Origin: a virus
UHGV virus genome: UHGV-1367653
DNA: 40,932 nucleotides
Strand: one strand, 5' to 3'
Part shown: positions 2 through 40,932 of the stretch, piece by piece
Layout: each line of letters starts with the position of its first letter
Position numbering within the stretch: position 1 is the stretch's first letter
The notes under the pieces: generated by a model
Seen by the model: the letters and a program-made list of their open reading frames with translations, nothing else
What the model was told of the DNA's origin: nothing
The model's database searches: none
Made by a program: the position numbers and the translations under genes

Positions 2-1366
2 CGCAACGTCGGCCAGAACGAGCCGGACCAGGCCTACGGCCGCGCGCGCCAGAAGGAATACGAAGACGGTGCCATCTGCTACAACTTCACCAAGCGCACG
101 CTATCCGGCATGGTAGGCAGCGTCATGCGCAAGGACCCGGAGCAGATTATTCCTAGCCAAATGGAATACCTGCTGACAAACGCCGACGGCTCTGGTGTCG
201 GCCTGTGGCAGCACGCGCAGGACACGCTAATGGAACTGGACTCTATCGGTCGTGGCGGGCTGCTGGTGGATGCGCCTAATGTTGCCGTGGCTACGATGGC
301 CGAGCAGAACGCGGGCCTGCTGAACCCGGTTATCGCGTTCTACACGGCAGAGAACATCATCAACTGGCGTCTTGCGCGTCACGGCTCTGTTAACAAGGTT
401 GTGATGGTTGTCCTGCGCGAAGAATACGAATATCTGGATGGCACTGACGAGTTCAGCCCGAACTACGGACAACAGTATCGCGTCCTGGATATCGTCGACG
501 GTAAATACCGCCAGCGCCTGTACCAGTTCAGCCAGAAAGGCGAGTTGATTAACAACGTGCAGGAGATTTTCCCGCAGCTCGGCAGCGTAGAGCCTGGCAC
601 TATCCCGTTCACGTTCATCGGCGCGAGCAACAACGACTCAACTATCGACGATGCTCCACTGCTGCCGTTGGCTGAACTGAATATCGGCCACTTCCGCAAC
701 AGCGCCGATAACGAGGAATCCAGCTTCGTTGTGGGCCAGCCGACACTATTCATCGCGCCCGGTGAGCAGATGTCGCTTCAGACGTTCACAGAGGCCAACC
801 CGAACGGCGTGAAGATGGGTAGTCGCACCGGTCATAACGTCGGCGCAGGCGGCAACGCGTTCCTGGTGCAGGCGGATGCTAACAACCTCGCCAAAGAGAA
901 CATGCTGAACAAAGAGCAGCAGGCCATTCAGATTGGTGCGCAGCTTATCACGCCGACACAGCAGATTACCGCCGAGTCTGCCCGCCTCCAGCGTGGTGCT
1001 GATACGTCCGTGATGGCGACAATTGCGCGCAACGTTAGCCAGGCGTACACAGATGCGTTAAAGTGGGTTGCAGCGATGATGAACCTCGGAGACCAGGAAA
1101 TTGAATTCAAGCTGAATATGGAATTCTTCCTGCAACCAATTACCGCACAGGACCGCGCCGCATGGATGGCAGACATCAACGCCGGATTACTTCCGGCAAC
1201 CGCATATTATGCCGCGCTGCGTAAAGCCGGTGTTACTGACTGGACGGATGAGGATATCCAGAACGCTATCGCCGACCAGCCGCTGCCGAATGCTACGACG
1301 GTGACTGGAAACATCCCGGCTTCAGCTAATCCGCAAGACCAACAGAATCAGCAGGCTCAGCAATGA
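2..1366 (+). CDS. Portal protein, C-terminal ~455 codons. The ORF is open from the first base of the window, and the first Met in the track is at 110.
   Basis: The frame is open from position 2 with no upstream stop. It matches in phase the partial ORF at 40805..40932. It lies between the large terminase and the head morphogenesis protein, and its size fits an SPP1-type portal. Confidence 0.8.
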   Translation, partial: RNVGQNEPDQAYGRARQKEYEDGAICYNFTKRTLSGMVGSVMRKDPEQIIPSQMEYLLTNADGSGVGLWQHAQDTLMELDSIGRGGLLVDAPNVAVATMAEQNAGLLNPVIAFYTAENIINWRLARHGSVNKVVMVVLREEYEYLDGTDEFSPNYGQQYRVLDIVDGKYRQRLYQFSQKGELINNVQEIFPQLGSVEPGTIPFTFIGASNNDSTIDDAPLLPLAELNIGHFRNSADNEESSFVVGQPTLFIAPGEQMSLQTFTEANPNGVKMGSRTGHNVGAGGNAFLVQADANNLAKENMLNKEQQAIQIGAQLITPTQQITAESARLQRGADTSVMATIARNVSQAYTDALKWVAAMMNLGDQEIEFKLNMEFFLQPITAQDRAAWMADINAGLLPATAYYAALRKAGVTDWTDEDIQNAIADQPLPNATTVTGNIPASANPQDQQNQQAQQ

Positions 1367-2406: not shown

Positions 2407-2975
2407 TGGCCGGATTCTATGTAGTAACCAGAAATGACCAGAAGCGCGTTATCACGCTGCGACGCGTTGCCGATAATACTGGCGGTGCCGTCTATCTCGA
2501 CGACGCGGCGGAAGCTGCACTGCCCGCGCCTACGGGAACAATGCCATTCTCGGACCTGACAACCTGGGCGGCGGCGGTTAAAGACACCTCAGCCTACCAG
2601 GTGCCGTATGACGCCGACAAAGGCCCATCGCTGATTACCGTAGTCGGCCAGACGCAATACAGTGCAGACGGCAGCACCTGGGCCAACACGATTCCGGATG
2701 GCGTTATGGTTGCCGGTAGTCCGGTCGAGTTTTACATCCGTACCAATCCGGCGGGCTTGACGCGCACAGACGACGGAACGTATACCTACAACTTCCTGAT
2801 GCAGACTGTCGGCTCTGGCGGACTCTCGCTGATTAACATCGGCCGCAACATGGCGAAAGTGGCGGGCACTACCCCGCTTGACCAGGTAGGGCAGATGTTT
2901 AGCGTAAACTGCACCGTCGTTGATGGCTCCGCGCATTCCGTGACGGGAACCGCATTATCTAAAGTATGGGAGTAA
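2406..2975 (+). CDS. Hypothetical structural protein (189 aa)
   Basis: An ORF with a TAATG start overlap and Thr/Gly-rich composition, located in the head module. Confidence 0.4.
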   Translation: MAGFYVVTRNDQKRVITLRRVADNTGGAVYLDDAAEAALPAPTGTMPFSDLTTWAAAVKDTSAYQVPYDADKGPSLITVVGQTQYSADGSTWANTIPDGVMVAGSPVEFYIRTNPAGLTRTDDGTYTYNFLMQTVGSGGLSLINIGRNMAKVAGTTPLDQVGQMFSVNCTVVDGSAHSVTGTALSKVWE

Positions 2976-3113: not shown

Positions 3114-3192
3114 GAGAGAAGTTGTGAAAGATAAAATGAAGCCAAAGACACCGATGAAACCGAAAATGCCCAAGAAAAAGGGCAAATAGAAC

Positions 3193-3216
3193 AAAGGCCC
3201 GAAAGGGCCTTTTCTT
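3193..3216. terminator. Bidirectional rho-independent terminator between convergent genes
   Basis: Hairpin aaaggccc-gaaa-gggccttt followed by tttctt on the plus strand. The minus gene stops at 3215. Confidence 0.6.
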
Positions 3217-3775
3217 ATTGAATCTTACACACGTCGCATCCGCCATTTCCGCGAACTATACCTTTTTCGGTGTACTCAGCAATCTTTTCATCGATAGTAT
3301 CACCGCGGCACATACCACGAGTAGAACTATCCGGTTTCATATGAGTTGCCTGGTAGTTGGCTTCCATTCTTTTTATGCGGGCATAATCTTCGGGGTACAT
3401 AACCTTAAGATTGTACAGCTCCTTTCCACTCATGTGCGGGCAGCAAATACAGCTAGATTTGCCAGGAAGATATAGACCGACTTCCTCTACCGCATCCGAT
3501 TCGTGCTCGCCGATGTCCCAGTCAAAAAGAGGGAAAACCTGCGTCCATTTATGCTCGGGTCTCCAGTTTTCTGCGCGCTCCGGTTCATCAGCGTTTATTC
3601 CTACAATACGGAGAATAGAGCCGGTGTGTGAAGATAAGCGCCGACCTTTACCCGCAACGCCCCAAGCCTTCCAGCAATCCGGATTATTGTTGAAATATTT
3701 ATCGGCGGTCTCAGTTTTAAATCGCATGGTGCAAGACTTGATGCCGAAGGCAGCCCCCCGGCAGCGTGTTATCAC
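3215..3775 (-). CDS. PAPS reductase family protein, C-terminal fragment with a Cys cluster. It is in a different frame from the N-terminal fragment.
   Basis: Cys-rich C-terminus (CICCPHMSG ... GGCDVCKIQ) typical of PAPS-reductase/DndC-like Fe-S proteins. The frame opens just after a TAG 6 codons upstream of the G6 run. Confidence 0.55.
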   Translation of the reverse strand: MITRCRGAAFGIKSCTMRFKTETADKYFNNNPDCWKAWGVAGKGRRLSSHTGSILRIVGINADEPERAENWRPEHKWTQVFPLFDWDIGEHESDAVEEVGLYLPGKSSCICCPHMSGKELYNLKVMYPEDYARIKRMEANYQATHMKPDSSTRGMCRGDTIDEKIAEYTEKGIVRGNGGCDVCKIQ

Positions 3776-4139
3776 GTTCTGCCGTTTCTATAACGCTCAG
3801 TGGTTTTCCGTTCTTGTCGAACTTGTGAAGCACTACAACCTTAGACCAGTTACGCGCTGCACACCATTCAGTCAGATGCTTGATGAATTTGTAGGTGTGC
3901 TGGTGCTCTGACCCGGTATCAGCAAACACAATCTCATCCGGCTCAAACCCGCGCTTATACATCTCAGCCAGCATCATCGTAGTGTCGTCGCCCATACCAG
4001 CCATGACTACACGGAATGTTGTAGCTGCCCAGGCTTCTTCGAAATGAGGACGTTCGGTAAAGAGAATCATGCTGAAATCCCCCATCCCCGAAGGCAAGAG
4101 CTTATCACCCAACGATGTTTTATTAGCAACAGATAGCAC
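3717..4139 (-). CDS. PAPS reductase family protein, N-terminal fragment with a degenerate PP-loop (VVMAGMGDDTTMM)
   Basis: PP-loop ATP pyrophosphatase-like motif. It ends 13 codons after the G6 run at 3754..3759 and overlaps the C-terminal ORF by 59 nt in another frame. Confidence 0.55.
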   Translation of the reverse strand: MLSVANKTSLGDKLLPSGMGDFSMILFTERPHFEEAWAATTFRVVMAGMGDDTTMMLAEMYKRGFEPDEIVFADTGSEHQHTYKFIKHLTEWCAARNWSKVVVLHKFDKNGKPLSVIETAERDNTLPGGCLRHQVLHHAI

Positions 4140-4322
4140 TCAAGACGCGAGCGCTTCGATAAGGCTCTGAGGAAATCGACGTGCCCGTAAGTGCCAGATT
4201 CAGGAATTCTCATTTTATTACTCCAGGGTTAGCGGCCCCTTGCCGCGCTGTGGATTGAACTATAACACAGCCAACACATTAGTAAACTATTATTCCAGTT
4301 ATTCCACCAATAAAAATAATGA

Positions 4323-23253: not shown

Positions 23254-23588
23254 GGGAATAACTCCTCAATCAGTTCATCCACCTGCGCTTTGCTGCCGAT
23301 GGTGCGCACGTCTGCGCCGACGGCTCTCATGCGCTCATGCTCGCGCTGCTGGTGCGGGTCAGGCTTCGTCTGTTCGTCTTTCTTTATTTCAAGGAACAGG
23401 ACATGTTCGGGCAGCAGGACTTGTTCGGATCGATACCCCCAGAAAGGCACGTCGCGCTCTGGAACCAGCACCATCAAATCAGGACAACCACGGCGCATCT
23501 CATAACTTATTTTTCGAACAAGGCAGCCTTTAGCTTTAAGCTGTTTTTTAGCGTACTCTACGACTTCGCCTTCCGGGGTCTTAGCCAT
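23244..23588 (-). CDS. VRR-NUC domain nuclease (PD-(D/E)XK)
   Basis: Motif GCPDL...LEIKK. Confidence 0.65.
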   Translation of the reverse strand: MAKTPEGEVVEYAKKQLKAKGCLVRKISYEMRRGCPDLMVLVPERDVPFWGYRSEQVLLPEHVLFLEIKKDEQTKPDPHQQREHERMRAVGADVRTIGSKAQVDELIEELFPCD

Positions 23589-28964: not shown

Positions 28965-29197
28965 GACGAAAACTCCCAGCTATCAATATGCTTCGCCTCG
29001 CCCATCTTTGCATGGACAATCATCGTCGTGTCAGGTGCCCAGGTAATGCCTTCAGGCGCGGCGGCAGTGCGCTGCTTAATACTCGATGGCGCGGTCTTGA
29101 CGAAAAACAGTGCTACACGGTGATTGCTGCGGTCGTGCAGCCATAGCATCGGCTTATTGTCGCGGGTGTCGACAGCTTCGTAGAGTGCGTATTTCAT
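28961..29197 (-). CDS. Hypothetical protein
   Basis: Coupled ORF. Confidence 0.35.
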   Translation of the reverse strand: MKYALYEAVDTRDNKPMLWLHDRSNHRVALFFVKTAPSSIKQRTAAAPEGITWAPDTTMIVHAKMGEAKHIDSWEFSS

Positions 29198-39476: not shown

Positions 39477-40792
39477 GCAATATCATGCTGGAGCGTCAGC
39501 GTGCGCGATGGTACGAACTGAAAGACCATCCGGTACAACTAGACCTAATCGCCGCGGTAAGCAATGGTGTACGCTTTCCTTTGGTCCCCGCGGGCCGCCG
39601 TTCTGGTAAAACAGAGCGGTTCAAGCGCTTCCTTGTAAAGCAGGCGTTTAAGGTTGTCGGGATGTATTTTGCGGCAGCGCCGACCCACGCCCAGGCTAAG
39701 AAGATTTTCTGGGATGACCTGAAGGCATTCACGTTCTCTTGCACGCACGCCCGTCGCCCTTCAGAGTCCGACTTGATTATATATCTGCCGAATGGGTCAG
39801 AGATTCATGTCATTGGTCTGGATAAGCCCCAGCGTATTGAAGGTATTCCATGGACCGGCGGTGGTATTGATGAATTTGCTGATATCAAGGCGGATTCCTG
39901 GGAAGCTAACATTTACCCTGCTTTGAATACCGTGAATCCGACCAGACCGGATTATCGTGCCTGGTGCTGGCTGCTTGGCGTTCCTGATGGCCTTAACCAT
40001 TACTATGACCTGTGTCAGACCGCAGAAGCGGGTGTATCTGACCAGTATAAAGTCTTCCACTGGATGACCGCCGAGATATTCCCGGAAATGGCCGCTGAGG
40101 CTCGTAAAATCATGAGCAAGAAGCAGTATAACCAGGAGTTTGAGGCATCATTCGAGACCGCCAACGGTAAGATTTATGAAGACTACTCAAAGGATAACTA
40201 CACGGATGCAGTGATAGCGCCTCACGAACAATTGCACTGGATGCACGACCAGAACTTTACACCTTTGTCATCCTCTGTTGCCGTAATTCGCAATACGGAC
40301 GAGGTCTACTTGTTGGATGAGATTGTTCTTATCTCCGCGGTATCCCGGCAGTCGGCACAAGAGTTCGTGGAGAAGTTCAAGGACCATCAAAATAAGCATG
40401 TGAAGATTTACGGTGACCCAGCCGGGCGAGCAGGCGAGAAGCACGGCCACAACTCTGACTATAACGATATCGAGGATGTGCTGAAGGCTAATGGATGGAC
40501 GTACGAGCGTCGTGTTAAGCGCGCGCACCCGGCCATTAAAGACCGGCAGAACGCCGTTCGCGCGAAAATTAAAACGGCAGACGGACGAGTCAGTCTGTTT
40601 GTTAACCCGCAGACAGCGCCGTGGAGTCATAAGGGTCTGGCGACGGTGCAGCTTCAGGAAGGCTCTGCTTTCCAGGAAGACCAGAAGAACCAGTACCAGC
40701 ACATTACAACAGCGATTGGTTACTTTGTTGATTACCTGTATCCTGTTAGCAATAAAGCGCCAATTCACATCCCGGTTACGTTTGCACTTTAA
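39473..40792 (+). CDS. Terminase large subunit
   Basis: Walker A VPAGRRSGKTE, Walker B-like GGIDEFAD, and a C-terminal nuclease region with GDPAG. Confidence 0.9.
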   Translation: MSNIMLERQRARWYELKDHPVQLDLIAAVSNGVRFPLVPAGRRSGKTERFKRFLVKQAFKVVGMYFAAAPTHAQAKKIFWDDLKAFTFSCTHARRPSESDLIIYLPNGSEIHVIGLDKPQRIEGIPWTGGGIDEFADIKADSWEANIYPALNTVNPTRPDYRAWCWLLGVPDGLNHYYDLCQTAEAGVSDQYKVFHWMTAEIFPEMAAEARKIMSKKQYNQEFEASFETANGKIYEDYSKDNYTDAVIAPHEQLHWMHDQNFTPLSSSVAVIRNTDEVYLLDEIVLISAVSRQSAQEFVEKFKDHQNKHVKIYGDPAGRAGEKHGHNSDYNDIEDVLKANGWTYERRVKRAHPAIKDRQNAVRAKIKTADGRVSLFVNPQTAPWSHKGLATVQLQEGSAFQEDQKNQYQHITTAIGYFVDYLYPVSNKAPIHIPVTFAL

Positions 40793-40804: not shown

Positions 40805-40932
40805 ATGGCTGTTGCAAATATCAACGCTGGTCAAGGCCAGAACGTCAAAACGCTGCACCGCCAGTATCAGGCGTATGCGGAACAGTGGCAGAAAATCCGC
40901 CATGCTCTGGCCGGTGACCTGAAAACATATCT
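40805..40932 (+). CDS. Portal protein, N-terminal 42 codons (partial, runs off the end of the window)
   Basis: ATG with an AAAGGAGG SD 13 nt after the terminase stop. It is in phase with the ORF that is open at position 2. Confidence 0.6.
   Translation, partial: MAVANINAGQGQNVKTLHRQYQAYAEQWQKIRHALAGDLKTY

Follow-up and report, generated by a model that had tools for sequence, protein, structure and literature searches.

A probable one-base slippage mutation in a PAPS-reductase-fold gene of an uncultured siphophage

Two overlapping minus-strand open reading frames (ORFs) in the virus genome UHGV-1367653, whose full 40,932 nucleotides we refer to as the window, resemble the two halves of a PAPS-reductase-family gene and meet at a run of six Gs (G6), raising the question of whether the locus encodes a working enzyme, a broken one or a sequencing error. 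The original prediction, made from the sequence of the window, left four causes open: a sequencing indel, a real pseudogene, programmed +1 ribosomal frameshifting and transcriptional slippage. Our analysis favors a real insertion of one G by slippage, very recent in evolutionary terms, which knocked out an accessory PAPS-reductase-like gene, and we consider this reading likely. Among the four causes, the pseudogene gained support from the five Gs (G5) found in intact relatives, and recoding or slippage during expression found none.

The split gene and its intact relatives

The upstream ORF runs from a GTG at 4139 to 3717 and encodes 140 amino acids (aa), and the downstream ORF, likewise opened by a GTG, runs from 3775 to 3215 and encodes 186 aa. 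Inspection of the minus-strand sequence and of the ORF coordinates bore out the predicted 59-nt overlap in different frames and placed the change of frame at the G6 (Table 1), which lies inside CTGCCGGGGGGCTGCC, where the overlap reads CTG CCG GGG GGC TGC C. This G6 was reported as the sole such run on the minus strand of the window, and C6 runs on the plus strand total two. As also predicted, deletion of a single G in silico joined both frames. The repaired protein comprises 284 aa from the ATG at 4070 (MILFTERP...), a start common to all homologues, or 307 aa from the GTG at 4139, to which the mechanical ORF of the N-terminal fragment reaches upstream. The repaired full-length product would be ~32 kDa, with DNTLPGAAFGIK as its junction peptide, and the earlier estimate of ~315 aa and ~35 kDa for the fusion was too high. 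The anatomy of the two halves was otherwise as proposed: the N-terminal fragment holds a PP-loop-like G25-x-G27-D28-D29-T30 motif together with strands 1-3 of the core sheet, and the Cys-rich C-terminal fragment includes the invariant residues C113, K118, C207, C210 and P211 and the near-invariant C278 and C281.

Full-length matches to intact proteins argue that these halves are one broken gene and rule out, at the level of sequence, a chance juxtaposition. In tblastn searches the repaired protein aligned over 100% of its length, at 92-93% identity, with 284-aa single-ORF proteins of five Salmonella phages (FSL SP-031, SP-038, SP-049, GRNsp27 and vB_SenTO17), and the intact 284-aa protein P0006, from a Logan assembly, is 98% identical to it. 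Nearly all of the 130 homologue clusters recovered at E <= 1e-5 from a large protein collection consist of one ORF of 280-304 aa. Megablast of the locus against phage genomes returned a 44-nt match only, the homologues having come from protein and distant searches.

Closer inspection of the run in these relatives provided the most direct evidence on how the gene was broken. The closest intact relatives, from Logan assemblies of SRR31242728 and ERR3179230 (L013 and L014), read CTG CCG GGG GCG GCC, with G5 in a 284-aa single ORF, and the Cornellvirus-type phages FSL SP-031 and vB_SenTO17 read TTG CCA GGG GCG GCA, with four Gs (G4) and again a 284-aa single ORF. In nucleotide alignments the window departs from the G5 relatives at this site by one added G and by a synonymous GCG to GCT change in the next codon. 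The original prediction had proposed comparing G5 with G6 among homologous phages and had held that intact single-ORF relatives with G5 would leave a simple pseudogene or an error; G5 in a single ORF is what the closest intact relatives carry, and by that reasoning the choice narrows to those two. Exact-pattern scans for G5, G6 and G7 versions of the window's lineage returned none in IMG/VR or the JGI metagenome collection; no G5 sibling of the window's genotype was recovered, and a degenerate pattern matched FSL SP-031 only. We propose that a synonymous CCA to CCG change in a sub-lineage would first have stretched the run to G5, and that replication slippage would then have inserted one G at codons 104-105 (CCG GGG), taking G5 to G6. 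Read from the aligned relatives, such a passage from G4 through G5 to G6 would be a classic signature of slipped-strand mispairing.

Profile and structure searches place the repaired protein in the adenine-nucleotide alpha-hydrolase superfamily. The PF01507 (PAPS_reduct) profile matched it marginally, at 23.2 bits against a gathering score of 22.5, over residues 26-185 and thus across the break; the N-terminal fragment alone scored 18.2 bits, under the gathering score, and the C-terminal fragment alone gave no PF01507 match. PHROG 424 ('PAPS reductase') matched at 3e-37. The PADLOC SspD model, which is without a curated cut-off, gave a weak match (5.6e-8, 30.8 bits, residues 37-240), and no DndC match was listed in the profile search of the repaired protein. 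An identity as a sulfate-assimilation CysH was rejected because the NCBIfam scores were far under their cut-offs (TIGR00434, cysH, 12.6 bits against 165.1; TIGR02055, APS_reductase, 13.0 against 235.3). A sequence search of the PDB returned PPR-repeat matches only, which were judged spurious, and a fold search was used instead.

For this we used an AlphaFold2 model built on P0006 with 44 homologues, which was confident (pLDDT 90.9). Its top Foldseek matches in the PDB were the CysH structures 6vpu and 1sur, the APS reductase 7lhr and TtuA/NcsA, at probabilities of 0.96-1.0 and overall TM scores of 0.3-0.5, with the CysH/APS reductases at probability 1.0 and TM 0.4-0.5. TtuA and NcsA are [4Fe-4S] tRNA thiolases. 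The nucleotide loop after strand 1, which is SGGKDS-like, takes the variant form M-A-G-M-G-D-D-T. Across the 44 homologues, residues G25, G27, D28, D29, P104, C113, K118, C207, C210 and P211 are invariant, and T30, A107, F108, G109, K111, C278 and C281 nearly so. The CysH enzymes (6vpu, 1sur, 7lhr) are thus the best structural matches of the model, and PF01507 is just passed; however, sequence identity to them is 14-18%, and the C-terminal region of the family has another Cys pattern, C207-x-x-C210 and C278-x-x-C281. Collectively, sequence and model indicate that the repaired protein would be a divergent enzyme of the PP-loop/PAPS-reductase fold, with a probable Cys-ligated cofactor site. The earlier family label therefore holds at the superfamily level, where PF01507, PHROG 424 and the CysH structures agree, and not beyond it.

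Core strands in the P0006 model comprise residues 20-24, 46-51 and 77-82 before the break and residues 152-155 and 175-178 after it. Because the break divides this five-stranded sheet 3+2 and precedes the invariant C113 and K118, loss of function is to be expected. The frame shifts after residue 105, translation stops 12 codons on, and the 179 codons that remain have no usable ribosome-binding site; the first in-frame ATG of the C-terminal fragment, at 3727, would omit residues 106-114, including C113, and no Shine-Dalgarno sequence was present before it. As judged from the sequence and the model, the enzyme is most likely inactive in the window phage, making the gene a nascent pseudogene or loss-of-function allele. 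tRNA-Gly may slip by +1 on the G run at a low, unprogrammed rate, and such slippage would supply at most traces of full-length protein.

Table 1. Positions of the split gene and its cassette in the window, deposited assemblies carrying the G6 allele, and disrupted homologues in other phages
Feature or sequence	Position or length	Strand	Run or lesion	Detail
Two-frame overlap	3717..3775	minus		59 nt; ORFs 4139..3717 and 3775..3215 in different frames
G6 homopolymer (plus-strand C6)	3754..3759	minus	putative +1 G insertion site	from sequence and alignments with intact homologues
N-terminal fragment	3717..4070	minus		residues 1-105, then 12 out-of-frame residues GCLRHQVLHHAI; TAA at 3719-3717
C-terminal fragment, +1 frame	3215..3775	minus		residues 106-284, from the G run on
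48-aa upstream ORF	4067..4213	minus		TGA overlaps the ATG of the PAPS-like gene (ATGA); conserved GGAG ahead
Promoter-like site	4259..4286	minus		TTTACT-16-TATAGT, TG-extended; consensus match only; sequence conserved in L013 and L014
Terminator-like hairpin, bidirectional	3193..3212	.		AAAGGCCC-GAAA-GGGCCTTT; directly after the stop codon; closes the cassette
JGI 3300045988 contig _008190	41,051 bp		G6	window plus 119-bp terminal overlap
ENA ERZ28572679 scaffold_594	31,868 bp		G6	
ENA ERZ27229682 k119_24182	13,239 bp		G6	
Klebsiella phage Carvaje (L002)	3141-3151		T6 to T7	residue 49
E. coli phage KarinMuster (Bas82; L003)	513-518		A7 to A6	residue 66
Logan lineage L021	~2407-2411		G6 to G5 in TGG GGG GTG	residue 137; 14 contigs, several runs
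JGI contig Ga0495776_103291 (L026)	~2407-2411		G6 to G5, same run as L021	~residue 139
Logan L025	~2455-2475		8-bp tandem duplication	~residue 157
P0131			shift, uncharacterized	near residue 150
E. coli phage PJ16 (H39)			72-aa remnant only	C-terminus

Age and authenticity of the extra G

In the 180 codons that follow the shift, the window is separated from its nearest intact relative by 1 amino acid and by ~54 synonymous changes, and the sole amino-acid difference falls on the branch of the relative. The ~21 changes private to the window in this region are all synonymous, the one apparent exception being an Arg AGA/CGC codon swap. Given that ~79% of sites are nonsynonymous, replacements would dominate under neutral drift, and the pattern suggests that the downstream half remained under purifying selection until very recently; with ~21 private synonymous changes and none truly nonsynonymous, the lesion itself would be very young. 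The gene is also a mosaic, the ERR3179230 phage being nearest over the first ~300 nt (pS 0.19) and the SRR31242728 phage over the rest, a pattern that appears to indicate within-gene recombination among related phages. Since mosaicism makes branch assignment unreliable, a three-taxon assignment of substitutions to branches was dropped and the window-private changes alone were used.

These features recall other young homopolymer-frameshift pseudogenes, produced by slipped-strand +/-1 indels in accessory genes of phages and bacteria, with which the locus shares a +1 base in a G run, half-ORFs that are otherwise intact and close to their orthologues, a lesion that is not conserved, and the status of dispensable cargo in a variable slot, the gene being missing from Enterobacter phage phiEap-2, the closest cultured relative of the window. 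Nothing essential separates the two; the lesion in the window is exceptionally recent and sits in a phage known from metagenome assembly and not from culture. Lesions of this kind are well known, and the window adds one more.

The main rival to a very recent slippage mutation is a sequencing or assembly artifact, under which the phage truly carries G5 and an intact gene and a miscalled G has spread into the deposited assemblies. We judge this unlikely. Three public assemblies carry both fragments verbatim, all with G6. Over 11-20 kb they match the window at 100% identity, while their lengths and breakpoints differ; that assemblies of different contig structure and pipelines agree on G6 argues against a miscall. 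Neither the ~48 comparable genes nor the 70 homopolymer runs showed another frame break, unlike what an indel-prone technology would leave. Each phiEap-2 protein with a homologue in the window aligned as one high-scoring segment pair, with the exception of the portal protein, whose gene wraps the permuted ends, and a scan of +/-1 edits at all 70 homopolymers of at least 5 bases yielded no other merger of homologous same-strand ORFs. Two edits, at plus-strand positions 23510-23514 (T5) and 29103-29107 (A5), merged long plus-strand ORFs and were rejected, as these ORFs lie antisense to intact minus-strand genes (an endonuclease/HNH gene and a 78-aa gene) that align to phiEap-2 in one piece; they are probably meaningless antisense ORFs. 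In addition, the k119 names and the 119-bp overlap suggest short-read de Bruijn assembly, in which consensus indels at a 6-mer should be rare. The JGI contig exceeds the window by just this length, which identifies the window as the genome trimmed of a k-mer-length terminal overlap.

Several points weigh on the other side. The lesion is a single base in a homopolymer, and the zero private amino-acid changes in the downstream frame are what a G5 miscalled as G6 would show. The count of six rests on assemblies rather than on read pile-ups, and the identical copies may share read sets, so that independent confirmation of G6 is not proven. The same JGI metagenome holds a second homologue frameshifted at a G run, which may hint at an artifact specific to this dataset. 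The loss of function, for its part, is deduced from structure and conservation. Weighing both sides, we regard the sequencing indel raised in the original prediction as disfavored, given G6 in three assemblies and a genome otherwise without a frame break.

Alternatives to simple inactivation

If the extra G is real, the gene could still be functional through programmed or productive recoding, either by +1 slippage of tRNA-Gly on G-GGG-GG or by RNA polymerase dropping one G, a possibility that we consider very unlikely. Within G6, a shift of one base downstream would leave tRNA-Gly(CCC) perfectly paired, purifying selection is evident on the downstream frame, and a 4-bp hairpin (CGUG-AUAA-CACG) stands just upstream of the run, with a 9-bp hairpin that includes it. 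However, neither the site nor the two-frame layout is conserved, the closest relatives having G5 or G4 and the family being overwhelmingly single-ORF. Sites of +1 shifting of the prfB type have a 0-frame stop or slow codon in the A site; here the 0-frame reads CCG GGG GGC UGC, and the GGC that follows GGG is a common codon by established E. coli codon usage, neither stop nor hungry. The window site resembles prfB in needing a +1 shift and in a P-site tRNA that could re-pair on the G run, but it differs in having neither a 0-frame stop or rare A-site codon nor a correctly spaced upstream Shine-Dalgarno sequence, and in being unconserved.

RNA structure gave no more encouragement to this alternative. 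A 121-nt fold around the site had z = -0.43, and 59 of 200 shuffled sequences gave a fold as good; the same hairpins are plain coding sequence in intact relatives. A conserved downstream RNA stimulator was rejected on the grounds that the only stem includes the G run itself and that the fold did not outdo shuffled sequence. Known transcriptional slippage in bacteria calls for A/T runs of ~9 or more, and the run here is only G6/C6, far from long A/T tracts. The frameshifts found elsewhere in the family differ from this one in position and direction, which also speaks against a shared mechanism.

We attach still less credence to a functional split enzyme, in which the N-terminal fragment (residues 1-105 plus tail) and a C-terminal fragment re-initiated at ATG 3727 would assemble as an active heterodimer. 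This ATG lies 10 nt upstream of the stop of the N-terminal fragment (ACC AUG CGA UUU AA), making termination-reinitiation conceivable, and gene callers predict both products. Yet a C-terminal fragment begun there would be without residues 106-114, which include the near-invariant A107, F108, G109 and K111 as well as C113, its start has no Shine-Dalgarno sequence, the modeled beta-sheet is cut between the two products, and none of the 130 clusters contains a homologue that is naturally two genes at this point.

Disruption of this gene is not confined to the window. We counted at least seven independent frame disruptions in the family, five of them at the gene's longest homopolymer and two at the same TGG-GGG-GTN run, a count that covers this gene alone. 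At least six further phage lineages have a frameshifted homologue; the sites differ from one to the next, and most are homopolymers (Table 1). Bas82 was sequenced by Illumina at 50-100x, the 8-bp duplication in L025 is not a typical sequencing error, and the abundant intact protein P0020 keeps G6 in the TGG GGG GTG run. Because sites and directions differ between lineages, the inactivations are taken to be independent, and the sequences suggest repeated loss of a conditionally dispensable gene rather than a shared mechanism. The L026 contig, which comes from the window's own metagenome (3300045988), belongs to an unrelated phage whose homologue is 70% identical and adjoins RecT, AlpA and ASCH genes.

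Recurrent breakage raises the further alternative of a reversible on/off switch, in which the homopolymer would be a contingency tract toggling a costly anti-defense gene in the phage population; for the window run we think this very improbable. In Campylobacter phages, hypermutable polyG tracts within genes have ~9-13 G and are polymorphic within stocks. There, as here, a change in G-run length switches the reading frame, but the run discussed here has 5-6 G and did not vary among the copies seen. Independent frameshifts recur at the gene's longest homopolymer in several lineages, two of them in the same TGG GGG GTN run, and a host-dependent cost and benefit of anti-defense exchange is known in a phage with a PAPS-domain gene (10.1101/2021.05.05.442762). 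Against a switch, the tracts are 5-7 nt long and their position, or even presence, is not conserved across the family; the three retrievable copies of the genotype all have G6, with no length polymorphism; and one 8-bp duplication and one remnant-only lineage fit plain decay. There is at best a slim chance that the breaks across the family reflect selection, with short homopolymers acting as population-level on/off switches and the G6 of the window representing 'off'; if so, the run could return to G5 on encounter with a host that uses phosphorothioate-dependent restriction. We therefore retain simple inactivation by a real +1 G insertion as the preferred account.

The cassette and its possible role

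The window is a complete, circularly permuted 40.9-kb genome of a Guernseyvirinae-type siphophage, with a portal gene that wraps from end to start (40805-40930 plus 1-1354). Across the first 25 kb, phiEap-2 matches 71% of the sequence at 90% nucleotide identity; it is without the PAPS-like gene and has another small ORF in the slot, which is flanked by head-decoration genes on one side and by the spanin gene on the other. Cornellvirus phages carry the PAPS-like gene in the same slot as the window. The cassette and the structural genes are on opposite strands. With its promoter-like site, its terminator-like hairpin and a 48-aa ORF whose stop overlaps the start of the enzyme gene (Table 1), it has the sequence features of a self-contained moron of typical architecture, in which the 48-aa ORF and the enzyme gene would be translationally coupled via ATGA. 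L013 shares the 48-aa ORF, FSL SP-031 lacks it, and L014 has an unrelated 79-aa ORF in its place.

Two observations concern the wider phage group. The large terminase of the window (39569-40789, plus strand) is ~23% identical to that of phiEap-2, with flanking genes at 90-100%, which appears to be a swap of the terminase module between otherwise close relatives. Intact copies of the FSL SP-031 type, whose protein cluster includes P0007, P0008, P0010 and P0013, occur on ~42-kb contigs in many assemblies of Salmonella enterica serovar Cerro (33 contigs for P0007), suggesting that Cerro isolates often carry this 'virulent' phage type or are sequenced along with it.

As to what the intact gene does, the cassette itself has one enzyme gene and the 48-aa ORF between the head genes and the spanin gene and contains none of the partner genes DndA/B/D/E or SspA/B/C. 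In Vibrio phage 44E38.1, a podophage, the PAPS-reductase-domain protein p0018, fused to Dam, is part of an anti-Dnd determinant (10.1101/2021.05.05.442762), and exchange of that determinant switched host range (Piel et al., 10.1101/2021.05.05.442762). According to a 2026 survey, Aca-regulated operons and variable regions of phages contain genes for DndC/SspD-like PAPS reductases, which it regards as candidates for anti-defense (PMC13551039). The genome paper for FSL SP-031 does not discuss the gene. The family seen in the window resembles p0018 and the DndC/SspD-like proteins in its PAPS-reductase/PP-loop fold, its weak SspD-like match (5.6e-8) and its stand-alone cassette in a variable region; it differs from p0018 in having no Dam methylase fusion, and the copy in the window is broken. 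The likeness drawn here is one of fold, profile match and context.

Neighboring genes were also recorded where homologues occur elsewhere. In Morganella phage Henu15 (L006, 3865-4773) the homologue adjoins genes for a C5 cytosine methylase and a thymidylate synthase, and the broken homologue of L025 (2987-4487) adjoins a dCMP-deaminase-like gene and an MT-A70 methyltransferase gene. Such modification-gene neighbors are consistent with a role in nucleic-acid modification or anti-restriction.

The moron setting and the recurrent loss fit the anti-defense literature, and by analogy the gene may provide a conditionally useful anti-defense or DNA-modification function of the DndC/SspD-like kind, whose loss would be tolerated or favored on some hosts. 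An accessory role of this sort is probable; membership in DndC/SspD proper is not established, owing to the weak profile match and to the missing partner genes. The link to nucleic-acid modification that had been drawn from the sequence is in this sense plausible, by way of the SspD-like match and the literature on anti-Dnd PAPS-domain phage proteins, and indirect.

For annotation, these findings mean that the two ORFs should be recorded as one disrupted gene (pseudogene or 'frameshifted') and not as two hypothetical proteins, and that the window phage should not be credited, on account of this gene, with a working auxiliary metabolic gene of sulfur metabolism or a DNA-modification function. 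For the biology of the family their value is modest: a phage PAPS-reductase-like family in which breakage recurs gains one more natural loss-of-function allele, and the window and the SRR31242728 phage offer a natural knock-out/wild-type pair for testing its role.

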